Shown piece by piece: positions 6,009 to 63,900 of a stretch of 64,000 bases of DNA. Position numbers and translations under genes: made by a program. Where the stretch lies: the NCBI GenBank assembly GCA_964452565.1, contig CAYVLY010000001.1, positions 291,009 through 355,008 on the forward strand, read 5' to 3'. This DNA is from an uncultured Gammaproteobacteria bacterium. Lineage in GTDB: Bacteria; Patescibacteriota; Patescibacteriia; UBA9934. The first letter of the stretch is position 1, and the number at the start of each line of letters is the position of its first letter. Below the pieces are notes generated by a model, which saw only the letters and a list, made by a program, of their open reading frames with translations, was not told the origin of the DNA and ran no database searches.

Positions 6009-6031
6009 AGTTGAACTAAAATAGTTCAACT
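6009..6031. repeat. REP-like palindrome AGTTGAACTAAAATAGTTCAACT (copy 1, immediately 3' of RAYT); part of a roughly 45-nt conserved unit tagttaaactt..agttgaactaaaatagttcaact
   Basis: Perfect 9-bp arms AGTTGAACT/AGTTCAACT around AAAAT; same unit repeated at about 6692 and 15896. Confidence 0.8.
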
Positions 6032-6598
6032 GAAATCCAGCGGCACACCAAATCTAATCCAATCTTCTAGAAATCTTTGATATTCTGAATAATCTCTGAA
6101 CTCATCTTCTATAATAGAATTATCTATAATATCGGAATCTCTAAAAACCGACCTAAGACTCGACCATTTATAATCACGCACAAATCTAAGTGCATCTTCG
6201 ACATCTAAACCACCGCCTTTCCAATTATTTGAAATAAATTTTAGAGGATTCAAATGGATATAACGAAACAGATGCAATAAATAGCCATCACGGTCGACTA
6301 ATTTGCGCTTATATCGTGTCTCAAACAAACTACCGGAACGCTGATTTCGCTTATTGAAATATAATGTGTAAGTAGTCCCTATCTTATGCATAAATGTTGC
6401 AATCCCACCTTCAGACGATTCTTCCAACAAAAAATGGAAATGGTTGTCCATGAGGCAAAAAGCATGGAACCTTACTAACTTTTTACCGTCTTCATATGCA
6501 AAACGCCGCATCTGAGAAATAAACCTTTTGCGATCCTGGTCGTCGTCATAGACTGAACGTTTATCAACGCCACGATTATAAATATGATAATAAGACAT
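6026..6598 (-). CDS. REP-associated tyrosine transposase (RAYT), IS200/IS605-like Y1 transposase (TnpA_REP)
   Basis: HUH motif in ...FCLMDNHFHFLLEE... and catalytic Tyr region ...FETRYKRKLV...; flanked on both sides by the same palindromic repeat. Confidence 0.8.
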   Translation of the reverse strand: MSYYHIYNRGVDKRSVYDDDQDRKRFISQMRRFAYEDGKKLVRFHAFCLMDNHFHFLLEESSEGGIATFMHKIGTTYTLYFNKRNQRSGSLFETRYKRKLVDRDGYLLHLFRYIHLNPLKFISNNWKGGGLDVEDALRFVRDYKWSSLRSVFRDSDIIDNSIIEDEFRDYSEYQRFLEDWIRFGVPLDFS

Positions 6599-6691
6599 AA
6601 AACTCCCATTACGGGAGTGTTTATATACTCATCACATCATCTTCAAAAGCCTTAGTCAACCTTAGCTGTATATAACTTGTTAAACTTGGTT

Positions 6692-6714
6692 AGTTGAACT
6701 AAAATAGTTCAACT
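6692..6714. repeat. REP-like palindrome AGTTGAACTAAAATAGTTCAACT (copy 2, immediately 5' of RAYT)
   Basis: Identical palindrome in direct orientation to copy 1; preceded by the same gttaaacttggttagttgaact leader. Confidence 0.8.
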
Positions 6715-15881: not shown

Positions 15882-15930
15882 TTAAGTTAGTTGAACTAAG
15901 TTAGTTGAACCAAAATAGTTCAACTAACTT
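15882..15930. repeat. REP-like element, dimeric copy (gttagttgaactaagttagttgaaccaaaatagttcaactaac)
   Basis: Same AGTTGAAC...AGTTCAACT palindrome family, 9 kb from the RAYT, between two convergent or tandem genes. Confidence 0.7.
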
Positions 15931-20238: not shown

Positions 20239-20700
20239 TTACCCGTTTTCGGGCGAGCGCCCCGGTGGTGTCCAATTTTTCACCACAATAAGATCCTTGA
20301 TAACCTTTTCCAGGTCATTTACACCATAAACCACAGTATGCCTCTCGTCCTTCTCGAGCTCTGGAGGCATGTCTGGACCGCGAACAATGCAAAGGCGTTC
20401 ATGTGTACAATTCTGCAACGCCTGATGGACCTGAGGGTTAGGAATGCCTTGCGCAATCTCACACCAGGTCAAAACGGCTGGCCAATCACTGACGCTAAGA
20501 ATGATCAGGTCAACCGGGCCATGCCTATACAGGCTATACGTAGCATAGAACAGGTAATTCCCACTTGTTGCAATGATCCATCTAAAGGACCCCTTGTGCT
20601 GCTCTGCGCAACTTGACACTTGCTGAATCTCTTCATGGCTCAGCGGCCCATCGTGCTCGATGAACATCACGTCAACGCCCTTGATCTTACCGCCGCTCAT
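20239..20700 (-). CDS. hypothetical protein, member D of a tandem paralog quartet
   Basis: Shares VRGPDMPxE...V..DL(E/V) block with member C. Confidence 0.5.
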   Translation of the reverse strand: MSGGKIKGVDVMFIEHDGPLSHEEIQQVSSCAEQHKGSFRWIIATSGNYLFYATYSLYRHGPVDLIILSVSDWPAVLTWCEIAQGIPNPQVHQALQNCTHERLCIVRGPDMPPELEKDERHTVVYGVNDLEKVIKDLIVVKNWTPPGRSPENG

Positions 20701-21257
20701 GAATCACCCCCTTGCTGCTGCTGGATCTTGGCGTAGTGTAGTTCAGTAAGGTGATGGACAAGATGATCATAGCCATCGACGATCGTGATGCGCTCTACCG
20801 CTCGAATCTCCTCCTCGGGCATGTCTGGACCACGTACAGCCACCAGCTGTGGGCTTTGTACCTCCCTTTTTCTACTAAGCCCACCGATGTCTGCGTCAGC
20901 CCTTCTGAATTCACGCCAAAAGTAGAAAACATTCTGCCATCTTGACACATCCAAGACAATCACATGAATAGTCCTCTCGGACTCATCAAGGCTACGACCC
21001 CTCTTCCACTTCCATGCCAAAACCTCATATGCGCGAGTAGCGTAACACGGAACGCGGCCGATGGTATATGGCATGAGGCTACCACCAATCTCAGACATGT
21101 GTGCCCCCAATGTCTCCCATTGCTGAACACTGAGCACGCCACCATCGAGAATCAAAAGAACGTTCAGTCCACTCATGGTTTTTCTCCTTTCATTCCACTC
21201 GTGGAGATTTAATGTACTAGCCATGGCCAATTTTGTCAAAAGCAAAGAGCCCTGCAC
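20697..21257 (-). CDS. hypothetical protein, paralog quartet member C (alternative start MASTLNLH at about 21224)
   Basis: N-terminus identical to member B through the 147-bp repeat; ORF-track start is a GTG inside the hairpin. Confidence 0.5.
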   Translation of the reverse strand: MQGSLLLTKLAMASTLNLHEWNERRKTMSGLNVLLILDGGVLSVQQWETLGAHMSEIGGSLMPYTIGRVPCYATRAYEVLAWKWKRGRSLDESERTIHVIVLDVSRWQNVFYFWREFRRADADIGGLSRKREVQSPQLVAVRGPDMPEEEIRAVERITIVDGYDHLVHHLTELHYAKIQQQQGGDS

Positions 21258-21347
21258 CTTATTGGCACAGGACCACGAATAGCATGGGCTATGAGACTAG
21301 CCAAGTTCTGGATCTGTGAGGATCTTGCTGAGTGCAGCCTCGAGCTC
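21201..21347. repeat. 147-bp direct repeat copy 1 (100% identical to 21788..21934). It spans the 3' end of one paralog, the intergenic hairpin and the 5' end of the next.
   Basis: Direct sequence comparison: gtggagatttaatgtactagccatggcc...gcagcctcgagctc is identical in both copies. Confidence 0.85.
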
Positions 21348-21833
21348 CTCAGTCGTATTGACCACAATCGCATCGCCATAGTCACCAGGGGGCGGATTAA
21401 CCAGGATAATTGGCATGGCTTGTACCTCGTCCCTGCCAATATAGCGACTCTGCGCGTTCGCTACAGCTTGGTCTGATTGATACCCCTTCATAAGATGCAT
21501 ACCCCTAGGTCCGAAATCAATCAGAATGGCTATCAGGGAACCACCTCCGCCAAGCTCCTTACGTCCAGCATGGCGGCATATTTCAATTTCTATCATCTCC
21601 CGCAGACATGCCTGTTTTGGGAGCTTGGGCTTCACCCAAAGCTGCACCTCGAGTCGATAGCCCACATCTACCAAATCTTCAGGAGCAAAGTAATAACCTC
21701 TCAGATTCGTTACCTTATCTTCAAGGTAAATCACAACGTATCTTTCCTGCATTTTGAACCCTTCCTTCTCATTACAGTGGAGATTTAATGTACTAGCCAT
21801 GGCCAATTTTGTCAAAAGCAAAGAGCCCTGCAC
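21297..21833 (-). CDS. hypothetical protein, paralog quartet member B
   Basis: N-terminus identical to C; C-terminus ...PPPGDYGDAIVVNTTEELEAALSKILTDPELG nearly identical to member A. Confidence 0.5.
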   Translation of the reverse strand: MQGSLLLTKLAMASTLNLHCNEKEGFKMQERYVVIYLEDKVTNLRGYYFAPEDLVDVGYRLEVQLWVKPKLPKQACLREMIEIEICRHAGRKELGGGGSLIAILIDFGPRGMHLMKGYQSDQAVANAQSRYIGRDEVQAMPIILVNPPPGDYGDAIVVNTTEELEAALSKILTDPELG

Positions 21834-21934
21834 CTTATTGGCACAGGACCACGAATAGCATGGGCTATGAGACTAGCCAAGTTCTGGATCTGTGAGGATC
21901 TTGCTGAGTGCAGCCTCGAGCTCTTCGGGCGTGT
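21788..21934. repeat. 147-bp direct repeat copy 2
   Basis: Identical to 21201..21347. Confidence 0.85.
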
Positions 21935-22385
21935 TGACCACGATTGCCTCGCCATACTCACCCGGCGGCGGGCAGATGAGGACGATCGGAATCGGTGACA
22001 GGATCAAGTCCAATGGCAGTTGCTGGAGCTGCGCTTCGAAAAACCTACCGGCAAGCCTCATGATGTCCTTGGCTTTTGGATAGCGCCTCAGAGACTCGCC
22101 GGCGCAAACCAGATCACCAAAGACCAGCAATGCCTTATAGCCTCGTCCACTCGCCGACCACTCCCAGATCGCATCGAGTGCGATCAACTGGATAGCGATA
22201 CTGACGGGACAAATAAGCCCATGATATGCGGGGCCTGGACAACCTTCAGGTGACCCAACAACCGCGAAGCTCGGCCCGACTGATCGCCTTAGAGAATAAC
22301 TCAGATCCTCAAGGGCCCGATACATCTCATTACGTCTGCTCCAGATCGAATAGTCGCATACAACATAAACGCTGGGAATCGGCAT
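21873..22385 (-). CDS. hypothetical protein, paralog quartet member A
   Basis: C-terminus ...PPPGEYGEAIVVNTPEELEAALSKILTDPELG shared with B. Confidence 0.5.
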   Translation of the reverse strand: MPIPSVYVVCDYSIWSRRNEMYRALEDLSYSLRRSVGPSFAVVGSPEGCPGPAYHGLICPVSIAIQLIALDAIWEWSASGRGYKALLVFGDLVCAGESLRRYPKAKDIMRLAGRFFEAQLQQLPLDLILSPIPIVLICPPPGEYGEAIVVNTPEELEAALSKILTDPELG

Positions 22386-22596
22386 CGAACCTCCTTCATC
22401 ACTTTCTGGTGGTGACTGAGATTAACAGAAGATTCAGATTCTGTCAATAACAAAACACCCCTTTGTCTTTCAAACAAAGAGGTGGTCAACCCTTTTGGTG
22501 ATTGTTTAATCGCTCGGGCTGGGCCCTCGCTTGTCCAAAATGTCTAAAATGTTTATTTCTAAATAAACAACTTGGACACTTTCAACATCTTAAACA

Positions 22597-49770: not shown

Positions 49771-50262
49771 ATGTGAATGAGTTAGTCCCGTGGGGTTTAA
49801 AAAACCACGGCCTTAACGCCGTGAAACAATGAGATCTGATCAAAAGTTCGATCAAATAGCCTCGATAGGACTTACGCTCTTGCAAGCAACCTATTGTCTT
49901 TAGCATTAAGTTGTCAGAAGTATAGAATATTGGCCAAATTATGTCAAGAAGCAGAACGCTCGCCCTTTCGGACGAGCAGTACGTGTACGTGTGGCGCTGA
50001 GGCTACTCAGAGCAGTACTAGCTTTTGATGCCAAACAGCTCAGTGATGATGCCGACAGCCTCTACCTTGGCCCGTTCCAGGTCCCCATGCAGTGTATACT
50101 GCTCCCAGAAAAGCCGCATCAACAAGCAACGCAAGCACATATTTTCATGACCACAAGCCATGTCTCTTTCCTTTCCCTGTGACAAGTAACACTAGAGGTG
50201 GCAATTAAAATAGCACCTATCCCCTTTCTTGTCAATTATCTGAGGTCTAAGTGCTTATCAAT

Positions 50263-50390
50263 CCGACCAAAGGCTTCGACTTTCCTCTTGTCATCCCTGG
50301 CTACGACCAGGGATCCATCGATTATCGAACTCTATAGTTGATGGATTCCCGCTTTTGCGGGAATGACAATAGATCAAAAACTTTGGTCAG
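50263..50390. repeat. Island hairpin repeat, long form (the structured element at 50289..50368 is inserted in the repeat loop)
   Basis: atccgaccaaaggcttcgactttc[ctcttgtcatcc...gaatgaca]atagatcaaaaactttggtcag. Confidence 0.7.
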
Positions 50391-50467
50391 AGCGGCGCGT
50401 TTTCCTTGCGCCGCACGTGACTATTCTCGCGCGGGAGGGAGAATAGTGTCGCTAGGCCTCTTGGGGC

Positions 50468-51652
50468 CTAGAAGAAGACTGTTGGTCCAACCATCTCATC
50501 GTGCGCGATCATATGGTAGTCAACGCCATCATCGGAAACCATGATCGAGTCTTCCGGAACCGTGACAGTCACTCGATCATCACCACTCGCAGCAGTCGCT
50601 CCAGTGCCGTCCACCGAGAACGTGACTCCGAGGATATCTTCGGCATCTACATTGATCGGCGCGTACGAAACGCCATCAAAGCTTGCGGTATGCGTACAGA
50701 TCGTTAGGATGCAAGTATCGCCGGGATAGCACGGGCCATAGCCATCCTCCATACATGCACCGCTTTCTACCGCTGCCTCACCAAGCAAGGCGCCGGAGTC
50801 GGTGTCGTACATGTACACAGAGCTCAGCCCTGCACACCATCCAGTGTCATCGTAGCTCCAGCAATCGACAAACACGGATGTGGGACTGATCTGGAGGTCA
50901 GAGCATTCATGCAGAGTGCTGAAGTTCGTATTGAGCGCATCGACGATTCCGGGAGTGGTTGAGGTATCGATCGTATACACATCGTCGACGACCAGCTCAT
51001 TGCTCATCTCGACCTCGGTCCCATCAGCCAATTCGACATCCCACCGGCAGGTGTTGTCCACATAGTTCATGAAGTCCGGGCTTTCACCGCCGTTGTTGGC
51101 CAGGATCACGACTCTGTCTGCAGTTGAGACGATATCGGATGGATCCAGGATGTCGAATGCGAATCCGACTTCGACACGGATGAACTCTGTGACGTCCTCA
51201 GAGATGTCGCACACCAGGTTGAGTGCTGTGGCGCGACGTCCAACGTTGAACCCACTATCAAGCAACAGGTGCTCATCAAGGATTATCTCAGTTGGCGGCT
51301 CGACAGTGCTGCCAGTCATGGCGTTGGACAGACGACAGCGCTGAACATACTGACTCAGATCAGTGAAGCCACGGTCGACTCCATCCATGCCGTAGTCGAT
51401 CAGTGCCGTTGGGCTCACGCTGAACACGTGGATGGGCCTTGGGTCTCCTGACCCAACCTCTGCTCCACGTTCTTCAACCTGCCGCAAGGTCAATGTACCG
51501 AAGTACACATTCTCCTGACCGGGCTGCACCTCTACCAATCCAGACCCCGGGCCCTCGAACTTGACCTTGAGGATCGAAGCATGCGAGCTGTGTGGCAAGA
51601 GATAGCCCATGAGGGCAACGATGAGAACAAACAGAATATTTGCGAAACGCAT
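50468..51652 (-). CDS. secreted Cys-rich hypothetical protein (island cassette)
   Basis: Signal peptide MRFANILFVLIVALMGYLLPHSSHA; 394 aa with diverse composition. Confidence 0.55.
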   Translation of the reverse strand: MRFANILFVLIVALMGYLLPHSSHASILKVKFEGPGSGLVEVQPGQENVYFGTLTLRQVEERGAEVGSGDPRPIHVFSVSPTALIDYGMDGVDRGFTDLSQYVQRCRLSNAMTGSTVEPPTEIILDEHLLLDSGFNVGRRATALNLVCDISEDVTEFIRVEVGFAFDILDPSDIVSTADRVVILANNGGESPDFMNYVDNTCRWDVELADGTEVEMSNELVVDDVYTIDTSTTPGIVDALNTNFSTLHECSDLQISPTSVFVDCWSYDDTGWCAGLSSVYMYDTDSGALLGEAAVESGACMEDGYGPCYPGDTCILTICTHTASFDGVSYAPINVDAEDILGVTFSVDGTGATAASGDDRVTVTVPEDSIMVSDDGVDYHMIAHDEMVGPTVFF

Positions 51653-52014
51653 AGCGTTTCCTTCCGGCCTTAGCGGCCTTGCATAGTACGGAATGCACTA
51701 CATCGGACGCGATGTCCGATCAAAGAGTTCGATGATAGTTGAAATGTCTAATCGTTCGGCCAAAGGCCTCACTTGTTGAAATTGTTGACGTTGCTTATCG
51801 CACCGTAAACATCTTCAACAACTTAAACAGTTTAAACATTCCTATCAAACACTTAAATCAGACCCCCTGCACTGGAGAGAGACCGGTGCAGGGATTCTGT
51901 AGTACTAGATAATTAGTACGTCCAAAAGACTCGAAATTATTCAAATACTTTGGATGAACCCCCTGCCGACGAAATTCGGCAGGGGCCAGGACTTGGGTTT
52001 CACGGATTTGGAAT

Positions 52015-52054
52015 CCGACCGAAGGGTTCAAGTTTGCTTAAACACTTTGGTCGG
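52015..52054. repeat. Island hairpin repeat CCGACCGAAGGGTTCAAGTTTGCTTAAACACTTTGGTCGG
   Basis: 10-bp stem CCGACCGAAG/CTTTGGTCGG (one G-U pair if RNA); loop carries the T-loop-like GGTTCRA. Confidence 0.75.
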
Positions 52055-52101
52055 ACGATGCGCTCAGATGAACGCACCGTAGAACGGTGTGAGTAGTCGG
52101 C

Positions 52102-52293
52102 CTAGCCGTCTGCGAACACCAGGCACCTGTCCTTGGTGGCGTCGGGGTTGAGGTGCTTCCGCAGCGCGGGATCGAAGGCCACATTCTCGCAACCTTCCGG
52201 GATCTCGTACTCGCCCAGGCTGACACCGGTGCACCCCGTCGCGGAGAAGCATGCGATGAAGGCCAGGGCCAGGCTGATGATGGTCTTACGCAT
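52102..52293 (-). CDS. small lipoprotein, 4 Cys (island cassette)
   Basis: MRKTIISLALAFIACFSATGC lipobox. Confidence 0.5.
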   Translation of the reverse strand: MRKTIISLALAFIACFSATGCTGVSLGEYEIPEGCENVAFDPALRKHLNPDATKDRCLVFADG

Positions 52294-52349
52294 GATGAAC
52301 TCCGTGGAGGCGCGGCAAAGCCGCTAGGGTTGAAGGTATCACTCTCGAA

Positions 52350-52389
52350 CCGACCGAAGGGTTCGAATTACTTCAAACACTTTGGTTGA
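52350..52389. repeat. Island hairpin repeat (ccgaccgaagggttcgaattacttcaaacactttggttg)
   Basis: Same family. Confidence 0.75.
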
Positions 52390-52454
52390 CCCCCTGCCGC
52401 GTATGTTGGCAGGGGCGCTCACGCGAGTCGCGTGGCGTCGTAGTAGTTGTGGGC

Positions 52455-52886
52455 CTACCAGCCCTGGAGCTGCTTGATCGTGAGAGCGGTTTCCTGTGCG
52501 CACACCAGATGAGGGTGCGTGATGAACGAAGCGGTACTCTGGTCCATGATCCTCATGAGCGCCGCCAGCAGATCGCACGGCCTGCCACCGAAGTGCAGAC
52601 CCACAGGACTCACGGCAGCCAGGAACATGCCCAGCAGCCACACCTCGCCGTCAGCGGTGCTGGCACTGTAGGTGATGGTCCAGGAACGTGGATCGTCCAG
52701 GTGTCTCACCACCCGGAGGCGTGATTCACCGGAACCTAGGTACGTCCTCCGGTCACTGGATCCTGACCAGGTGTCCCGCCCCATCAGCTCGCTGAGCCTG
52801 GCGATGTCTTTGGACAACACCACCGTGCTTATCTCGATCTGGCGGGCAAGGAATCCCCCGAAGAGCCTCTCAAAGATACCGAACAT
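52455..52886 (-). CDS. hypothetical cytoplasmic protein (island cassette); start at MFGIFERLFGG
   Basis: ORF between two repeat copies; ORF-track start 52931. Confidence 0.45.
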   Translation of the reverse strand: MFGIFERLFGGFLARQIEISTVVLSKDIARLSELMGRDTWSGSSDRRTYLGSGESRLRVVRHLDDPRSWTITYSASTADGEVWLLGMFLAAVSPVGLHFGGRPCDLLAALMRIMDQSTASFITHPHLVCAQETALTIKQLQGW

Positions 52887-52942
52887 GGCATCTCCTCTCA
52901 CCTGGCTCTGGGGCCAGGGCTCTGGTTTCACGGATTTGGAAT

Positions 52943-52982
52943 CCGACCGAAGGGTTCGATATTCATCAAACGCTTTGGTCGG
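52943..52982. repeat. Island hairpin repeat (ccgaccgaagggttcgatattcatcaaacgctttggtcgg)
   Basis: Same family. Confidence 0.75.
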
Positions 52983-53197
52983 TCCCGCCCAGACATTATG
53001 CGGGAGACGAAGAAAAGGGACTACAGGCCAAGCAATCTACAGATACACTCGACGATGACCAACCCAACCAGTATACCAAGGCCCAGGCAAACCAGATCTC
53101 TGTAGAAATTGGTACGGGTGCGACTATCAAACAAAGATACCTACTTCCACCTGGCGTCAACCAGGAGTTATGGGGTTTCAAGAATGGACACAGCGGC

Positions 53198-53374
53198 CTA
53201 CTTGGGCTTCCATTCTCCAGGACAGACACCCTGACGCTCGTACAAGGTGATTGCAGTGCTGCAGTACTCCGCCAACTCCTCCTTATTCATCATGATCGGA
53301 GGCTTGGGAAGGTACCACAACGCAAACACCGCCAGCGCCAACAGCGCACATCCAGCCAGCAGTTCTCTCGACAT
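53198..53374 (-). CDS. small secreted protein of about 58 aa (island cassette; below the ORF-track size cutoff)
   Basis: Manual translation MSRELLAGCALLALAVFALWYLPKPPIMMNKEELAEYCSTAITLYERQGVCPGEWKPK. Confidence 0.4.
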   Translation of the reverse strand: MSRELLAGCALLALAVFALWYLPKPPIMMNKEELAEYCSTAITLYERQGVCPGEWKPK

Positions 53375-53448
53375 TCCAACTCTCTTTCACCTAGTAAAAA
53401 CCGGGGTCAGAGGTGAGGGTTCGGATTTGCGATCCTATTTGACGCATA

Positions 53449-53488
53449 CCGACCAAAGGCTTCGAATTGTTTCAAAAACTTTGGTCAG
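53449..53488. repeat. Island hairpin repeat (ccgaccaaaggcttcgaattgtttcaaaaactttggtcag), followed by a shared roughly 45-nt module gtaggtgaggcttgtcgtcaattcgacactacctc
   Basis: Same family; the extra module is also present after the 54067 copy. Confidence 0.7.
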
Positions 53489-53541
53489 ACCCCCCGCCCA
53501 GACATTATGCGGGGGACGTAAGACGTAGGTGAGGCTTGTCG

Positions 53542-54012
53542 TCAATTCGACACTACCTCGAGGGTGGGATCTTCGGATTCGTGTTCTTCTCCATGGCGTG
53601 GCATGATCGCCATACCCAGGAGAATCCACGCGATCCACGGGAAGAGCCACTCGAACGGCCAGAGCACCCAATCCGCCAGGAACTGACGAAAAGGAGTCCG
53701 ACTCGGACAGCCCTGAGTGAACCACTCGATGGCGAAGAACCGAGGTTCCGTATCCCGATTCATCTTGCCCTGATAGTGAGAATCAGCCCATCCGCATTGC
53801 CACCACACACCACCACGATCACGTTCTAGGCGGCAGCTGGCGTAGCGGTCGTAACCAAGCATGAGCGAGGTTATGGTAGCTGCGTTCTTCTCGCCATCAC
53901 CATCGATGTCGAGGATAGTCCTATCCACACAGCCAACTGCACACGACCCAAGGGACAATCCAAGGGCGATGAAGAAAGCTACATTGAAGATGATTCCTCT
54001 GAGTCGCTCCAT
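53542..54012 (-). CDS. lipoprotein with a C-terminal TM helix (island cassette); start at MERLRG
   Basis: MERLRGIIFNVAFFIALGLSLGSC lipobox; Trp-rich C-terminal helix. Confidence 0.5.
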   Translation of the reverse strand: MERLRGIIFNVAFFIALGLSLGSCAVGCVDRTILDIDGDGEKNAATITSLMLGYDRYASCRLERDRGGVWWQCGWADSHYQGKMNRDTEPRFFAIEWFTQGCPSRTPFRQFLADWVLWPFEWLFPWIAWILLGMAIMPRHGEEHESEDPTLEVVSN

Positions 54013-54066
54013 AGCAACTCCTTCCACCAGATTTCTCTGGGTTGAAGATTGGAGTTCGGATTGGAT

Positions 54067-54107
54067 CCGACCGGAGACTTTGAAATACTTTCAAAATCTT
54101 TGGTCAG
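54067..54107. repeat. Island hairpin repeat (ccgaccggagactttgaaatactttcaaaatctttggtcag)
   Basis: Same family, diverged loop. Confidence 0.7.
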
Positions 54108-54175
54108 ACCCCCCACCCGAAAACAATGTGGGGGTCAAAGACGTGGGTGAGGCTTGTCGTCAATTCGACACTACC

Positions 54176-54643
54176 TCAGGGGCTGGTGCTGGTCCTGCAC
54201 TGCATCGAATAGACGATGAAGGTGAACAGCGCTGATACCAAGACGCAGACCTGGCAGGTCCTGCCCAGGAAAGTCTCAAACGGCATCGTGCTTGGAACGT
54301 AGATCACGAGGCCAGGGTAGATGGCTACCACCAAGCACGTGAAGATGCCAAGTGCCATCACAGTAGTGTACATGGCGCAGAACATACACATCACGTTGCT
54401 GGTGAAGGACTTGCGTACGCCATCCACGAACAGCAAGCCTGTTCCGAGAAGGCAAAGCACGACGCCAACAAGGAACGATACGAAGTACACGAGATACATC
54501 GGTATATCTTCCACCTGGCTGTAGCCAGGAGTTAAGGGTTCAAGCTCGGATTCATGATCCGACCAAGAACCTCGAGAGAGTTCAAGATTCTTGGTCGGCG
54601 GCGGCCTGTCGAGAGTATCGACTTCCGCCTTGTACGTACTCAT
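54176..54643 (-). CDS. 4-TM membrane protein (island cassette)
   Basis: Four hydrophobic helices; Cys-rich. Confidence 0.5.
   Translation of the reverse strand: MSTYKAEVDTLDRPPPTKNLELSRGSWSDHESELEPLTPGYSQVEDIPMYLVYFVSFLVGVVLCLLGTGLLFVDGVRKSFTSNVMCMFCAMYTTVMALGIFTCLVVAIYPGLVIYVPSTMPFETFLGRTCQVCVLVSALFTFIVYSMQCRTSTSP
54559..54598. repeat. Island hairpin repeat, diverged copy lying inside the 5' end of the 54176..54643 ORF (ccgaccaagaacctcgagagagttcaagattcttggtcgg)
   Basis: Same stem; loop variant. Confidence 0.5.
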
Positions 54644-54649
54644 ACGTAG

Positions 54650-54757
54650 TCAACAGCCCTGCAGGAAAAGCAAGGGGAAAATCATGGCGACTATCACCAC
54701 GCCCATCATAATCAGTGCCCAGCTCACCTCATCCATTCCACTTTTTTGGGAGTCCAT
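54650..54757 (-). CDS. putative 35-aa membrane peptide (island)
   Basis: Manual translation MDSQKSGMDEVSWALIMMGVVIVAMIFPLLFLQGC. Confidence 0.25.
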   Translation of the reverse strand: MDSQKSGMDEVSWALIMMGVVIVAMIFPLLFLQGC

Positions 54758-54828
54758 AGGACTCCTTTCCCCGGCTTATTGCCGGATGCGTCTCTAGGAC
54801 GCCTTCTGAATTGACTCTTTTACTATAA

Positions 54829-54869
54829 CCAACCGAAGGGTTCGATTATTCATCAAACACTTTGGTCGG
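54829..54869. repeat. Island hairpin repeat (ccaaccgaagggttcgattattcatcaaacactttggtcgg)
   Basis: Same family. Confidence 0.75.
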
Positions 54870-54915
54870 ACGATGCACCCGGGTGGTGCATCGTACGGGA
54901 CGAGGGGGTTGTTGG

Positions 54916-55362
54916 CTACCAGTGCATGAAGTCGTGGATGCTCTGGGCCCCTGTGCGAACGTGTGTGAACAGCTGCAGGAGATCGCCATTCTCACAGCGC
55001 ATCCAGCCCGAGATCAAGCTCCTGAGCCTGGACATACGCTGACTAGACATATTCGTGGGCTTGGTGTCTCCCAGGGCGTTGAGCAGCACGGGCAGCACGG
55101 GCGCTTCATATACAGTCGGCTGGCCCCACAGGAAGTACTCTAGCTTCCAGGTGCCATCGGGCTGCTGCTTGGCCTCGAGGAACTCGAATCCCTGCGGCCA
55201 CGCGAACCTGAGCGCCTCCTGGCCGTCTTCCTGCTCAGACTCGATGGTCATGCGGCGCTTGGCGCTCTCATGGGCTCGGGCCATGGCCTCAGCCGAGACG
55301 GTCGCCTCCACTTGAACTGACCGACTCTTCCGCTTCGCGCTTGGACGAGTAATCACACTCAT
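54916..55362 (-). CDS. hypothetical protein (island cassette)
   Basis: ORF between repeat copies. Confidence 0.45.
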   Translation of the reverse strand: MSVITRPSAKRKSRSVQVEATVSAEAMARAHESAKRRMTIESEQEDGQEALRFAWPQGFEFLEAKQQPDGTWKLEYFLWGQPTVYEAPVLPVLLNALGDTKPTNMSSQRMSRLRSLISGWMRCENGDLLQLFTHVRTGAQSIHDFMHW

Positions 55363-55413
55363 CTCCTCTCACCTGGCTCTGGGGCCAGGACTCTGGTTGA
55401 ACGGATTTAGAAT

Positions 55414-55537
55414 CCGACCGAAGGGTTCAACTTTCTCTTGTCATCCCAGCCGTAGAGCCGGGATCCATCGTTTATCGAACTCGATAGTTGATGGATTCCT
55501 GCCTACGCAGGAATGACATATTAAACACTTTGGTCGG
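55414..55537. repeat. Island hairpin repeat, long form (the structured element at 55439..55518 is inserted at the same loop position as in 50263..50390)
   Basis: ccgaccgaagggttcaactttct[cttgtcatccc...ggaatgaca]tattaaacactttggtcgg. Confidence 0.75.
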
Positions 55538-55582
55538 ACGATGCACCCGGGTGGTGCATCGTACGGGAACGGGGAGTTGGGG

Positions 55583-55906
55583 CTACCGCTGGGCCTTGGC
55601 GTGGGCCTTGCGGTCGGCGCCCTGGCGCGGCTGCTGGCCGGACTTGCCGGGCTGGCGATCGGGGCTCTGGGCCTTGCGACCCTTGGGCTGGTTGCCCTGC
55701 CTCGGCGCCTGTGCCCTGGTCTTCGGCTCGGGCTTCTGCACCTCAACCTCCACCTCGACCCGGTCCGTGATGGACTCGGGCTCGGTGAGCTGGTCGACGA
55801 TGCCGTAGACCACGAGGCCGGTGATCGAGGTGATGCCGAGGCCGATGGCCAGCAGGATGCCAGCCACGATGGCTATGGCAGATGCGGTTCTCTGGTTCCT
55901 GGTCAT
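55583..55906 (-). CDS. small membrane-anchored protein with a basic Gln/Pro/Lys-rich tail (island cassette)
   Basis: TM helix AIAIVAGILLAIGLGITSITGLVVYGIV. Confidence 0.45.
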   Translation of the reverse strand: MTRNQRTASAIAIVAGILLAIGLGITSITGLVVYGIVDQLTEPESITDRVEVEVEVQKPEPKTRAQAPRQGNQPKGRKAQSPDRQPGKSGQQPRQGADRKAHAKAQR

Positions 55907-56043
55907 TTGAGTTCCTTTCTCTTGACCGGGTTGTACTCGCTCGAGAATCTCGATACTGGATCAAGAGTCTTGAGCGAGCGGCACATTCGATGCACCACAC
56001 GGAAGTTGGTTGTGAAGAAGGGACGGAGGAGGTTGATGTGGGG

Positions 56044-56823
56044 CTAGTCGATGAAGAACAAACGCTGACCCGGGGTGGGCAGGCCATCCACGGTGAGGCC
56101 ATCGAGGAGCTGGCCCTCTGCGGTCTCCCAGTGGAACTCGGCCGGCCAGCTGATGCTGGTGACCGTGTCGTCCTGGCAGTCCTCGGAGGTACAGGGGCTC
56201 GGAGCCGCCTCATAGGCCATGCGGAACCACTTGGTCTCACCGGCCACGAGCTCCACATCGATCTCGGCAACTGCCTGCTCGACGTCCAGGTTGGGACCGT
56301 AGCTGCAGTCCACCCACTCGGCCTCATCGTCGTCGATGGTGTAGAAGTCCCAGTTGGCTTCCAGCGTCATCCACTGGTCGTAGCCGTCCTGGTCCTCACC
56401 CATGTACTCGTAGAAGCCGAAGTAGAGGGAATCGCCCTGGTTGGAGCAGGAGTTCCAGTCCGTGTAGCCATAGTCCGTGGTGCCCATGCGGAACGGCACC
56501 TGGGTGAGGTAGGCATCCACGTTGGCAGTGAGGCTGAACTCGATGACCGGGACCCTGTGGCCCAGTGCGAAGTACTCGCCCTCGACCTCGATGTAGTCGA
56601 GCTCGATGCGAGGCGAGACCTCCTCTTCTTCGACACCCTCTGTCTCCTGGCTCTCCTCTTCACTGCTGCCGATGTCGTCGACGTCCTCGTCGTACTCGTA
56701 GACGTTGGCATCGTTGTCCTCGATCTGTTCTTCCTGGCTCTCGACTTCCGGGCACTCGCAGGGAGCGCCGCAGGCGATGGAGAGGAACAGGGGGGCGAGG
56801 ACGGAGGGGGTGGAAAAACGCAT
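56044..56823 (-). CDS. acidic lipoprotein (island cassette); start at MRFSTPSV
   Basis: MRFSTPSVLAPLFLSIACGAPC lipobox; long Glu/Asp-rich linker; aromatic-rich C-terminal domain. Confidence 0.5.
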   Translation of the reverse strand: MRFSTPSVLAPLFLSIACGAPCECPEVESQEEQIEDNDANVYEYDEDVDDIGSSEEESQETEGVEEEEVSPRIELDYIEVEGEYFALGHRVPVIEFSLTANVDAYLTQVPFRMGTTDYGYTDWNSCSNQGDSLYFGFYEYMGEDQDGYDQWMTLEANWDFYTIDDDEAEWVDCSYGPNLDVEQAVAEIDVELVAGETKWFRMAYEAAPSPCTSEDCQDDTVTSISWPAEFHWETAEGQLLDGLTVDGLPTPGQRLFFID

Positions 56824-56887
56824 TACGCGCTCCTTCTTGCTTGGGAAATGCGGATGAGCCGCTTGGGAAAGGTAGTTTCTATCGTAT

Positions 56888-56927
56888 CCGACCGAAGGGT
56901 TCAAGTTTACTTAAACGCTTTGGTCGG
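56888..56927. repeat. Island hairpin repeat (ccgaccgaagggttcaagtttacttaaacgctttggtcgg)
   Basis: Same family. Confidence 0.75.
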
Positions 56928-56972
56928 GCGGCACATCAGAGACGTACCGCGTAGACGAAGGGGGTTGAAGGT

Positions 56973-57131
56973 TCACTGTACCCTCTCGAACCGGGTGGTC
57001 GAGTGGGTGATGTCGTTCACGACTGCATCGATCGCTGCACTTGCCCTGCTCACGCCCTTGAGGGCGCAGATCAGAAGCACCGCGATGAATGCAAGACGGA
57101 AAAATGGAACTTCGACGATATTTTCGAACAT
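56973..57131 (-). CDS. putative 52-aa membrane peptide (island)
   Basis: Manual translation MFENIVEVPFFRLAFIAVLLICALKGVSRASAAIDAVVNDITHSTTRFERVQ. Confidence 0.3.
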   Translation of the reverse strand: MFENIVEVPFFRLAFIAVLLICALKGVSRASAAIDAVVNDITHSTTRFERVQ

Positions 57132-57265
57132 GGGACTCTCCGGTTGGTGGGTTGTTCTCTTCCCAGACCTTTACAAAGTTCTTGAACTAATGTTCCAGGT
57201 CTTTGCTAAGGTGCGGCGCGTCGATCAGATCAACGCGCCGCAACGAGGATGAAGGGACGGTATCG

Positions 57266-57727
57266 CTACAGCCCCATCTCCTTCAGCTCCCGCTGGTACT
57301 CGCGGCACTGGCGACGCTGGGCCTTCTTCTCGAAGTCGCGACAGCTGAGCTGCGCGAGCTCCGTAGTCCAGGCGCTGAGCTCCTCCTCGAGGGTGGGTTC
57401 GGGCTGGGCCAGGGTCTCGGGGCCGATGCTGTCGGTGCGGTACACGCCGACGGCCTCGATCTCCTTGGCCAGCTGCGCATCCTTCCAGGCCTGCCAGGCC
57501 TGGATCTCGGCGGCCGTGGGGCCCTCCTCCTTCTGCACCTCGACCTCGACGGTCTCGGCGGGCAGGAAGTCGGAGAGGGTGGCCAGCGGGGCTTCGACCA
57601 GCTCGGGCGCTGCCTCGGCCTTGCCACCGTGCACCAGGTGCATGACACCCAGACCGGCGGTGAAGCCGATGGTGAGCAGGACGAGCAGGGCGGCGAGCAG
57701 GGCGGCGGCGATGGCGATATACTTCAT
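57266..57727 (-). CDS. secreted hypothetical protein (first island cassette at the right border)
   Basis: Signal peptide MKYIAIAAALLAALLVLLTIGFTAG; alternative overlapping minus-frame ORFs are Arg/Pro-rich GC artefacts. Confidence 0.5.
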   Translation of the reverse strand: MKYIAIAAALLAALLVLLTIGFTAGLGVMHLVHGGKAEAAPELVEAPLATLSDFLPAETVEVEVQKEEGPTAAEIQAWQAWKDAQLAKEIEAVGVYRTDSIGPETLAQPEPTLEEELSAWTTELAQLSCRDFEKKAQRRQCREYQRELKEMGL

Positions 57728-57961
57728 GATGTACTCCAGGATTCTCGAATTGGGGTTGGGGACTTGGTAGACGAGATCTGAACACTTTTTATATTCAGGT
57801 CTCGTCTACCAAATGTAGCTTGTTAAAGAAAACCGGCTATCTTTCTTGATTTAAGAGAGATAACCGGTTTTCCACCACAGATCACCATATAACAGGATCA
57901 CTGTGATAATGCTTCTTAACCCAGAAGCTGGGGCTCTCTCTGATTGTGAAGTTCCTTGATC

Positions 57962-58050
57962 TTTACATGTAGTACTATAGCACAAAATCGACCTTTTGTC
58001 AAGGCCTAAGGCCGGATTTTAGGCTAATTTTAGTCTATTTTAAAAGGCTG
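57962..58050. repeat. AT-rich conserved motif actatagcacaaaatcgaccttttgtcaagg... at the right edge of the GC-rich island (paralogous copy at 63822..63900)
   Basis: About 27/31 identical core with the copy at the window end, plus shared ttttagGCTAattttag blocks. Confidence 0.55.
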
Positions 58051-58799: not shown

Positions 58800-58810
58800 A
58801 TTCACTTTCT

Positions 58811-58893
58811 TATCATCCCGGCCATAGAGCCGGGATCCATCGTCATACCAAATTCGATAGTTGATGGACCCCCGATTGGGGTCGGGGTGACAG
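58811..58893. repeat. Structured multi-hairpin element, TGTCATCC...GAATGACA family, copy C, immediately upstream of pyrH
   Basis: tatcatcccggccatagagccgggatccatcg...cgatagttgatgga...ggggtgaca. Confidence 0.65.
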
Positions 58894-62426: not shown

Positions 62427-63026
62427 CTAGAAGCTCAGGGCGAACACGCCACGCATGGCGTGCAAGTAGTCATCGCCCTCGAAGTCCATGTAGTACTGAA
62501 GTTCGAGGTGGAACGGACCCTGTGTGAAGCCGATGTGCGGGCCGTAGTCGATGTCGGAGTTGACCTGCTCAGCCTGGGCCCCGAAGTTCATGCATGGCTG
62601 TTCGGAGTTGTAGTCAGCGGCATAGTAGCCGTAGACCACTTGACCAGCGTCACCCTCTCCAGCCACGAAATCACCCTCGAGGAACAGGCTCAATGACTCG
62701 TACCCGAGCACCATCCACAGCGAGCCGCCAAAGGCATCTGCCTCCTCGAACCAGTCGAGGAACACTGCAGCCTGGGGGGAGATCCAGAGGCTCACATCAC
62801 CGAGCTGAGCAGTGAACGTCGGCCCCACATAGATGACCGTGGGCGAGAACTGAGCCTTCGGGATGTCGAACAGGTGCAGACTTGCACGCGCCCCAGAACC
62901 GTCTACCGTGGGCAACTCACCACCGATGATGGCAACCGCCTGCGTGCCAGTCCAAGTCCCGGCGCGAGCGGCAGTTGGAAGGCCCAGAATGGACAGGAAG
63001 AGGATCAAAACGATCGGATTCCGCAT
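62427..63026 (-). CDS. secreted hypothetical protein in a second GC-rich segment
   Basis: Strong RBS aaggaggtg 8 nt before ATG; signal peptide MRNPIVLILFLSILGLPTAARA; roughly 60% GC. Confidence 0.5.
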   Translation of the reverse strand: MRNPIVLILFLSILGLPTAARAGTWTGTQAVAIIGGELPTVDGSGARASLHLFDIPKAQFSPTVIYVGPTFTAQLGDVSLWISPQAAVFLDWFEEADAFGGSLWMVLGYESLSLFLEGDFVAGEGDAGQVVYGYYAADYNSEQPCMNFGAQAEQVNSDIDYGPHIGFTQGPFHLELQYYMDFEGDDYLHAMRGVFALSF

Positions 63027-63151: not shown

Positions 63152-63189
63152 AAAAAAAGCACCCCCGCAACGAGATGCTGGCGGGGGGC
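63152..63189 (-). terminator. rho-independent terminator on the minus strand (gccccccgc...gcgggggtgc hairpin plus T-run)
   Basis: Plus strand reads caaaaaaagcacccccgcaacgagatgctggcggggggc. Confidence 0.55.
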
Positions 63190-63821
63190 AAGATGTTGTG
63201 GCGCCCCCGGCCGATCGGCGCTTGATGGCCGTATGCGGGGGTGCCCTCGTATTTCGCTGCTAGGGATTGGGAAAGCCCATGATTACAGCTAGTACTCAGT
63301 GCCGACGAATCAGCACTGGAGAGTGAGGGGTCCAACGGTCGAACCCAGCGACTCACTCCACGTATTTAATCGGTTTAGAGAACTTATACCATCCCTCCTT
63401 CTTGTCTCGAATCTTGGTATAAGTCGGTCCATTATGACCTATATTACGTTCCCTTCTCCCTCTAACGTTCGATTCGTCGGGAGCGCGCGGCCGCGATGGG
63501 CCAATTCCGCATTTCAGGTGCCTTTCGATATCTACTCGGCTGTCTGCAGGTTGGGATCTCCGGATTGGCATCCGAAGTCCTGCATCCTTATTTCCACCGC
63601 GGACCCGGTGGAACCTGTGTCATCTTTCACTCATTACAGCCCTATGTTTTTGGGACCAACCTTTTGGGGTTGATTAACGATGACTCTCAACTGCGTGCTA
63701 GTAGCTACGCAGCCTGGGCCGGGCCTGGGTGACGCCGCGCGGGCTACCACTCTTGGGGTCACACTCAGTAACCGCCTGGTAACCGGCCGCGTCGACGTTG
63801 AACGCCTCGGCACTTCAGGAC

Positions 63822-63900
63822 TGAAACTATAACACAAAATCGAACTCTTGTCAAGTGCTTGCTTGACTTTTTAAACTAAAATTAGCCTATTTTTAGCCTT
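63822..63900. repeat. Second copy of the AT-rich conserved motif (actataacacaaaatcgaactcttgtcaagtg...) at the right edge of the second GC-rich segment
   Basis: See 57962..58050. Confidence 0.55.

Follow-up and report, generated by a model that had tools for sequence, protein, structure and literature searches.

What is the block of GC-rich small genes that separates pyrH from rplJ in a member of Candidatus Uhrbacteria, and what is the hairpin that recurs between these genes? The block lies in a 64,000-nt stretch of contig CAYVLY010000001.1 (the window, whose coordinates are used throughout), from a genome whose best rplJ relatives are named Candidatus Uhrbacteria (Patescibacteria, or Candidate Phyla Radiation, CPR). 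A first-pass annotation of the window had described the block as an integron-like cassette array without a visible integrase. We found that the array is genuine, chromosomally fixed and lineage-specific in Candidatus Uhrbacteria, and that its resemblance to an integron is architectural only. The reading that we favour, with a little less than even confidence, is that of a lineage-specific cassette-like operon, in which two adjoining hairpins (A and B) would punctuate the RNA between cistrons, with homology for gene turnover supplied by the repeated modules that contain them.

The GC content of the block (50260–57760) is 56.9% vs. 44.1% over the remaining window, where 7.5-kb segments range from 41.2 to 47.2% (sd 1.4). 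The values given earlier (about 60% vs. 38–40%) had the right direction and were slightly exaggerated. Pfam annotation of L001, an independently assembled Logan contig, placed rplJ-rplL at the left edge of the array, and a ribosomal protein L10 leader was recognised at 49790–49921 on the minus strand (36.4 bits; the Rfam gathering score is 44). At the right edge lies pyrH (AA_kinase), in agreement with the neighbourhood proposed at first.

The repeat pattern quoted in the first-pass annotation gave 4 matches at up to 3 mismatches, with 0 expected. With looser patterns and a covariance model trained on 16 short copies of three species, we identified 13 copies of a ~40-nt imperfect hairpin, here hairpin B, which bears out the earlier count of at least ten. 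Nine copies are short, one is a diverged short copy and three are long:

56888–56927, minus strand: short copy with hairpin A ahead of it, 65.5 bits
55933–55981, minus strand: diverged copy with a different outer stem, 27.8 bits (E 2.6e-5), outside the training set
55414–55537, minus strand: long copy with an 83-nt miniature inverted-repeat transposable element (MITE; 55436–55518) in its loop
54829–54869, minus strand: short copy, 59.9 bits
54559–54598, minus strand: short copy, a fully paired variant with compensatory changes, 50.2 bits
54067–54107, minus strand: short copy, 55.7 bits
53449–53488, minus strand: short copy, 63.7 bits
52943–52982, minus strand: short copy, 70.6 bits
52350–52389, minus strand: short copy, 63.2 bits
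52015–52054, minus strand: short copy, 67.8 bits, which opens a run of three modules without an intervening open reading frame (ORF)
51914–51961, minus strand: degenerate copy in an ORF-less unit, 57.3 bits
51716–51861, minus strand: long copy whose loop holds a ~100-nt insert (about 51741–51841) belonging to a second type
50263–50390, minus strand: long copy with an 83-nt MITE (50286–50368) in its loop, in the final module of the array

Matches of the covariance model at E<0.1 all fell within 51914–57205, and a search of all 64 kb with filters off returned nothing outside the GC-rich island better than E = 0.29. The copies share a single orientation, minus-strand scores being 50–71 bits and plus-strand scores not above 31 bits. 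That each ORF is followed by the hairpin, as had been stated, was true for most ORFs, but not for the spaces from 57268 to 57129 and from 56046 to 55904, which hold no typical copy. Rfam searches, performed for the region at E up to 1 and for the whole window at the gathering score, recovered only the L10 leader and one tRNA and left the hairpins unmatched.

The stem of hairpin B is continuous over 17–18 bp, contains two symmetric mismatches but no bulge, and is capped by a 4–6-nt loop, the sequence of which varies between copies. Across the 16 copies, 90.6% of the cells were paired and compensatory double changes were present in 8 of the 18 pairs; none of 500 shuffles reached the observed covariation score, and controls slid along the sequence were at most 60% paired. 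One position stays unpaired in 14/16 copies, and one retains a U·G on the coding strand in 15/16. This covariation argues that the two arms of B pair with each other on a single strand. The alternative that B is a palindrome bound by protein as double-stranded DNA was considered and rejected, as compensatory changes between the arms speak for base pairing.

The second element, GC-rich hairpin A, directly precedes B (at 0–2 nt) in 22/22 copies from the three species; its stem is constant, while its sequence is unrelated between copies. The inter-ORF module consists, in order, of the stop codon, hairpin A, hairpin B, a small GGATTnnnnATCC hairpin, often a CCTGGC...GCCAGG hairpin, a ribosome-binding site (RBS) and the ATG of the following gene. 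Both hairpins fold better on the coding strand. For B, 35 G·U pairs were counted on the sense strand vs. 12 on the antisense strand, with a mean minimum free energy (MFE) of -18.2 vs. -15.1 kcal/mol, and the sense strand folded better in 12/16 copies (p 0.009); for A it did so in 17/22 copies (p 0.002), with 28 G·U pairs vs. 8, these p-values being only indicative because the hairpin copies are related. The plus strand of the window has a negative GC skew, which suggests that the coding strand of the array is also the lagging-strand template.

All array ORFs and all B copies are co-oriented behind one promoter, and the following features frame the array:

57974–58002, minus strand: array promoter TTGACA-17-TATAGT, TG-extended, matching 11 of 12 consensus positions, just downstream of pyrH
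57822–57972, minus strand: structured segment of 150 nt that separates the first cassette from the array promoter (MFE -49.6 kcal/mol, z -4.31)
57764–57812, no strand assigned: inverted repeat of 19 nt, its arms 95% complementary, where the GC-rich block ends on the side of pyrH
49957–49978, minus strand: terminator-like hairpin at the end of the array, followed by the rplJ promoter (49919–49947) and the L10 leader

A promoter search inside the island gave nothing comparable to the site at 58002–57974, and no terminator with a U-tract was detected in the array before 49978. None of the A and B hairpins was called terminator-like on the minus strand, where one weak call (51881–51863) overlaps the 3′ arm of a hairpin A; hairpin B is followed by GGATTCC... 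with no T run, and neither hairpin has a U-tract. As there is a single strong promoter, with none comparable and no U-tract terminator inside the array, the array genes are probably promoterless cistrons of one long operon. The structured segment at 57822–57972, which ends in a terminator-like stem of ~20 bp with a weak U-tract, may be a small RNA or a leader/attenuator.

The array contains 12 small minus-strand ORFs of 35–394 aa with an RBS-like sequence ahead of the ATG. Inspection by eye found a signal peptide, lipobox or transmembrane (TM) N-terminus in 10/12, the 143-aa and 148-aa ORFs being those without, so that the number, size and mostly exported character of the genes are as first described. 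Their GC content at third codon positions (GC3) is 0.61–0.93 vs. 0.38–0.43 in rplJ, rplL, pyrH and their neighbours. With GC1 of ~0.6, GC2 of ~0.4, GC3 of up to 0.93 and a strong three-base periodicity, these are real genes that evolved under a GC-rich regime:

57266–57727, minus strand: ORF 1, 153 aa, N-terminal TM segment, GC3 0.93; also a Logan gene call in contig L002
56973–57131, minus strand: ORF 2, 52 aa, TM or signal-like
56044–56823, minus strand: ORF 3, 259-aa lipoprotein (lipobox LSIAC), GC3 0.87, orphan
55583–55906, minus strand: ORF 4, 107 aa, TM anchor, GC3 0.92
54916–55362, minus strand: ORF 5, 148 aa, no signal peptide, orphan
54650–54757, minus strand: ORF 6, 35 aa, TM
54176–54499, minus strand: ORF 7, 107 aa, multi-TM, its start being taken as the ATG downstream of the hairpin at 54559–54598
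53542–54012, minus strand: ORF 8, 156-aa lipoprotein (LGSC), the final codons of which lie within the conserved 3′ module
53198–53374, minus strand: ORF 9, 58 aa, TM or signal-like
52455–52886, minus strand: ORF 10, 143 aa, no signal peptide
52102–52293, minus strand: ORF 11, 63-aa lipoprotein (ATGC), GC3 0.88
50468–51652, minus strand: ORF 12, 394 aa, signal peptide, GC3 0.63
50018–50161, minus strand: 47-aa ORF, GC3 0.65, past the final hairpin and ahead of the terminator, with a promoter-like site of its own (50207–50235); its membership of the array is uncertain

Ten of the array ORFs were compared with Pfam, PADLOC and PHROG and matched no family above threshold. Homologue searches with the 259-aa and 148-aa ORFs among 5.8 billion proteins returned self matches only, and an exhaustive HMMER search with the 394-aa ORF gave 4 weak relatives. 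AlphaFold2 was run on single sequences of two proteins: the model of the 394-aa protein was unusable (pLDDT 34.6), and that of the 148-aa protein (pLDDT 64.5) matched no PDB fold (best E 0.13, TM-score <0.3). By blastn, the island had no match in the PLSDB plasmids or INPHARED phages. Neither the collection scans described below nor the homologue searches with these three cassettes revealed a GC-rich donor, a cassette homologue or a GC-rich genome bearing hairpin B.

Related loci were sought by scanning GTDB genomes and JGI metagenomes with degenerate hairpin patterns, which gave one and seven loci, respectively; two scans of viral contigs gave none. The JGI matches L007, L008 and L012 were rejected as chance (covariance-model E 0.74). 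Hairpin B was recovered in only two further species. The first comprises a Candidatus Uhrbacteria metagenome-assembled genome (MAG) from GTDB, L005, and loci L006, L010 and L011 from other samples, with rplJ 90% identical to that of the window. The MAG was matched solely at this locus, where at least 7 hairpins and at least 5 small TM-protein ORFs lie directly upstream of rplJ-rplL-gpsA. In the second species (L009 and L013–15; ~35% GC; rplJ 80% identical), the order beyond the pyrH stop is the same promoter, 4–5 hairpins with 4–5 small ORFs, and the L10 leader. The array promoter is kept in L009 and L013, heading the L009 array with the same sequence; there it abuts the array, the structured segment found at 57822–57972 of the window being absent. 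The GC3 of array genes is raised above that of the host in both species (0.58–0.79 vs. 0.37–0.45 in the L005 species, 0.73–0.80 vs. 0.22–0.39 in the L013 species).

Thus the pyrH/array/rplJ arrangement recurs, with a different gene content in each species: no cassette is common to the three at DNA or protein level. Within species the arrays are 100% identical across 2–4 samples, bar one tandem copy of a 316-nt cassette that is present in L013–15 and absent from L009; L013 accordingly carries three tandem paralogous cassettes, one more than L009. No single cassette was seen in two contexts among the compared arrays. The first-pass annotation had named an unvarying gene order across related strains as a refutation of its idea; in these samples the arrays come close to that within each species, and between species the turnover is complete.

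The more distant Uhrbacteria (L016/17, L019, L021, L027) have neither B hairpins nor a hairpin-punctuated array. In L016/17 pyrH is not at this position, and in L019, L021 and L027 the space between pyrH and rplJ holds 1–5 ordinary small genes. Among closer rplJ relatives (L023–L026) the comparison is limited by contigs that end 250–440 nt upstream of rplJ; in L026 a tRNA-like sequence, recognised by eye, stands there in place of the array. From the genomes sampled, the array looks like one sub-lineage's elaboration of a variable pyrH–rplJ intergenic slot. The 394-aa gene was also considered as a conserved neighbour of rplJ, which was rejected because the 438-aa gene that occupies this position in L016 is unrelated to it.

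Stop codon usage was compared between the same arrays. TAG ends 9/13 array ORFs in the window, 5/5 in L013 and 3/5 in L005, and ~22/59 background genes of the window; since background genes also use TAG often, the excess is modest. In the array (G/C)CC frequently comes after TAG, and the stop codon may therefore belong to the conserved 3′ module.

The modules bear signs of exchange. Upstream and downstream of B, the 50-nt flanks assort independently of each other, shuffled flanks scoring at most 10. For the copy at 55414 the upstream flank matches that of 54829 (38/50) and the downstream flank that of 52943 (42/50), and for the copy at 52943 the upstream flank matches that of 53449 (26/50). 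Near-identical 5′ or 3′ modules are attached to unrelated array ORFs; three consecutive modules have no intervening ORF, and one remnant ORF is present. These ORF-less units look like microhomology deletions. All these signs fit both site-specific exchange at B and homologous exchange or gene conversion on the repeated modules.

Nested inserts of 83–105 nt and of two types were found in the loops of 3/13 B copies. The first is a MITE-like element of 83–85 nt (TGTCAYYCC...GGGATGAYAAGA) with three small hairpins. Two of its copies (50286–50368 and 55436–55518) lie in B loops, and a third (58808–58892) lies outside the island, upstream of pyrH; a related copy occupies a B loop in the L005/L010 species (L010, near 1757–1802). 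The second insert (51741–51841) is palindromic (…ATGTTTA..TAAACA…TTTCAACA), occurs in B loops of two species, and is related to positions 1259–1345 of L005 (78% over 87 nt) and to a palindrome at 22532–22587.

In the reading that we favour, a single strong sigma-70-type promoter next to pyrH would read through ~7.5 kb of promoterless, GC3-rich orphan genes until the terminator ahead of the rplJ promoter closes the transcript. After nearly every stop codon the transcript would carry the bipartite A+B stem-loop, followed by the semi-conserved 5′ untranslated region and RBS of the next gene. The two hairpins would act single-stranded on the coding strand and, most probably, would serve within the mRNA as punctuation between cistrons. 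They could block 3′ exonucleases or be bound or cleaved by a dedicated factor, and in this way set the stability and dosage of each cistron. At the same time, the repeated modules of 100–150 nt would be portable homology, on which neighbouring modules recombine or gene-convert and array genes are duplicated, deleted or replaced. Such module-based turnover would leave the gene content stable within a species and entirely different between species.

Several observations weigh against this proposal. The RNA-level role is read from the strand asymmetry of the hairpins, and a hairpin formed in single-stranded DNA (ssDNA) would fit that asymmetry as well, since the coding strand probably doubles as the template of the lagging strand. 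The nested inserts of both types in B loops, including the MITE of the L005/L010 species, could point to extrusion of the hairpin at DNA level. It is the sequence of B, and not its structure alone, that is conserved across species with rplJ 80–90% identical, and it is confined to the arrays, which suggests a dedicated protein partner, possibly a recombinase. An RNA role leaves unexplained both the complete gene turnover and a GC3 excess of 20–40 points in three AT-rich hosts, for which neither a GC-rich donor nor a cassette homologue was found. The source of the GC3-rich genes is in fact explained by neither the RNA-punctuation model nor a recombination-site model.

Foremost among the alternatives is a non-canonical integron-like system, which we regard as rather unlikely. 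Hairpin B, together with A, would then be a new folded single-strand recombination site, its recombinase would be encoded elsewhere, and cassettes would be captured from a GC-rich pool and placed behind the fixed promoter. Like integrons and clusters of attC sites lacking integron-integrases (CALINs), the array has co-oriented, promoterless, mostly orphan small ORFs under one upstream promoter, a structured imperfect palindrome after the ORFs, some units without an ORF, and a composition that deviates from the host. Its site sequences are homogeneous, and they are conserved within and between arrays as are the attC sites of sedentary integrons. The independent assortment of B flanks, the tolerance of 83–105-nt inserts in B loops and the wholly different content of the same locus in three species are equally in its favour. 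GC3 is deviant and tends to be highest in promoter-proximal cassettes (Spearman -0.51, p 0.07), and hairpins can fold on the lagging-strand template, which the coding strand probably is.

Against an integron stands, in the first place, the search for its parts. As the first-pass annotation had noted, there is no tyrosine recombinase in the window: a Pfam scan of ~50 window ORFs outside the island, which covered nearly all of those with at least 110 aa, detected no PF00589. Neither this nor other recombinase families were found in the 10-kb flanks of the L013, L014 and L015 arrays. The lack of canonical attC cores was likewise borne out, as a rule-based scan of the island gave 0 candidates and neither RYYYAAC nor GTTRRRY occurs within 15 nt of any short B copy; the GTT...AAC of hairpin B belongs to its inner stem, in an order opposite to the AAC/GTT of attC. 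Moreover, attC recombines as the bottom strand, whereas in the array it is the coding strand that folds better. Mobility of cassettes was not seen: apart from the one tandem copy, samples of a species share identical arrays, and no cassette was met in two contexts. Loop sequences differ between B copies, and the obligatory second hairpin, A, is foreign to integrons.

The attC site consists of an R box, unpaired central spacers, an L box, extrahelical bases and a variable terminal structure of 20–100 nt (PMC4889954). Hairpin B has no AAC/GTT triplet at the stem base, no R box/spacer/L box layout and no extrahelical bases, and its loop is of 4–6 nt vs. the 20–100 nt of attC. The lack of an IntI in the window sets the array apart from integrons, while the lack of an integrase near it recalls CALINs (PMC4889954). 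The integron-like architecture described at first (co-oriented promoterless ORFs, hairpins, a deviant block at a conserved locus) therefore stands, but membership among integrons or CALINs is not supported. As to the fallback offered at the same time, a novel recombination-site family, flank reassortment at B fits it, and no mobility was seen.

A more far-reaching version joins these elements into an undescribed gene-capture platform, analogous but unrelated to integrons, in some Candidatus Uhrbacteria (CPR bacteria with ~0.7-Mb genomes). A recombinase with its gene at another locus would act on a bipartite A+B site of the lagging-strand template and would load GC-rich orphan genes for surface or secreted proteins behind a fixed promoter that adjoins the ribosomal-protein genes. 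Taken as a whole we judge this unlikely. The array is a repeat-punctuated variable gene array, and it would be categorically new if the recombination reading were true. A further comparison is offered by the rAID-1 clusters of Bacteroidales, which combine skewed GC and repetitive intergenic sequences with a XerD-like recombinase at their head (bioRxiv 10.1101/471110). These have a conserved XerD-family tyrosine recombinase and recognisable immunity-gene homologues, whereas the array has no adjacent recombinase and ten of its cassettes have no Pfam, PADLOC or PHROG assignment. Our literature search found no published description of this element or of a cassette platform in CPR bacteria.

The array might instead be a hot spot of recombination or gene conversion, in which GC-biased conversion raises GC3 in place, fast evolution of the ORFs erases homology, and the hairpins are by-products or initiators of local recombination. 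In its favour, GC3 is raised in all three hosts regardless of host GC, neither donors nor homologues were found, and module mosaicism together with tandem paralogues speaks of frequent local recombination. Yet three-base periodicity and lipoboxes reflect long-standing coding constraint, the identity of arrays across samples within species shows no fast ongoing change, and we know of no demonstration of GC-biased conversion in these bacteria. We consider this explanation quite improbable.

A very improbable alternative is that hairpin B is a repetitive extragenic palindromic (REP) or bacterial interspersed mosaic element (BIME), or the end of an IS200/IS605-like insertion sequence (IS), handled as ssDNA by a Y1 transposase and accumulated in the operon. 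The window does contain such a gene, missed in the first-pass annotation: an IS200-like Y1 (HUH) transposase gene resembling REP-associated tyrosine transposases (RAYTs), of 190 aa, at 6026–6598. It matches PF01797 at 40 bits (cutoff 23), and its best NCBIfam match is the REP-associated tyrosine transposase, at 45 bits (cutoff 80). A 23-nt hairpin, AGTTGAACTATTTTAGTTCAACT, brackets the gene at 6009 and 6692, making a unit of 6009–6714, and a solo copy lies at 15903–15925.

REP hairpins are known as mRNA stabilisers. Like them, B is an imperfect palindrome of ~35–40 nt between cistrons of one transcript, has no U-tract and would be a plausible protector of mRNA 3′ ends; a Y1/RAYT-like gene is at hand, and small MITEs are active in the genome and land in B loops. 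However, the Y1 gene is flanked by AGTTGAACTATTTTAGTTCAACT and not by B, and its NCBIfam score is below the RAYT cutoff. REPs are spread genome-wide in hundreds of copies and both orientations, whereas B is absent from the other 56 kb of the window, was met in the collection scans at the array locus only, stands in one operon and one orientation, and is always accompanied by hairpin A. The suggestion that a REP/BIME-like element has colonised the island is thus contradicted by the confinement of the hairpin to the array.

That GC-rich contaminating DNA was joined into an AT-rich contig by chimeric assembly is hardly credible. No independent assembly crosses the junction on the pyrH side, but on the rplJ side one does so at 100% identity; the GC-rich array is also found between pyrH and rplJ on contiguous contigs in four assemblies of a relative and upstream of rplJ in the GTDB MAG, and host MITEs occur both within and outside the island. 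The bridging contig, L001, covers the window from cassette 12 to rplJ and beyond. Other Logan contigs break exactly at B copies (52025, 55539). Within the array promoter region, where no repeat explains the break, Logan contigs of two runs terminate at 57959 and a further contig begins at 57982; hence the pyrH-side junction of the window genome itself is not independently bridged. In one related species, pyrH, promoter, array and rplJ are contiguous in four independent assemblies. Misassembly, which the first-pass annotation had named as a possible refutation, is therefore excluded by independent contigs and by relatives that carry the array. The bridged junction, the arrays of relatives and the copies of the inserts outside the island together mark the array as a long-term resident of the genome.

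Three further features of the window were recorded. On the minus strand, a promoter nearly identical to that of the array (TTGACAagagttcGATTTTGTGtTATAGT, 63826–63854) is followed by a GC-rich non-coding stretch of ~670 nt that leads to an intrinsic terminator (63152–63188). The whole unit (63152–63854) is strongly folded as RNA (MFE -265.9 kcal/mol, z -4.36), has no Rfam or tmRNA match, and is a candidate large non-coding RNA. L013 has a comparable GC-rich promoter-to-terminator unit at about 1990–2900, in the same position between genes for a peptidyl-prolyl isomerase (PPIase) and an RNase_H_2-like protein; it contains an internal tandem duplication of ~150 nt and is not alignable by blastn to the unit of the window. 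Adjoining the candidate RNA is a 199-aa ORF (62427–63026, minus strand) with a signal peptide, a TAG stop and no hairpin B, whose GC3 of 0.76 makes it the only gene outside the array above 0.7. Finally, four consecutive minus-strand ORFs of 153–186 aa at 20239–22385 have no Pfam match and a mildly raised GC3 (0.50–0.60); two of them share 216 nt at 91% identity, which suggests a small paralogous family.

CPR bacteria have tiny genomes, and here a fixed chromosomal slot is taken up by a set of orphan genes, mostly for exported proteins, that differs from species to species. It also poses a puzzle, as genes with GC3 of 0.8–0.9 reside inside genomes with GC3 of 0.25–0.45 and no donor was detected. 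Genes of foreign codon composition that share a common structured punctuation would imply either an RNA-level dosing system or a hairpin-based form of gene capture, both of them new. In both cases the locus is relevant to the way in which these bacteria vary the proteins exposed to their surroundings.

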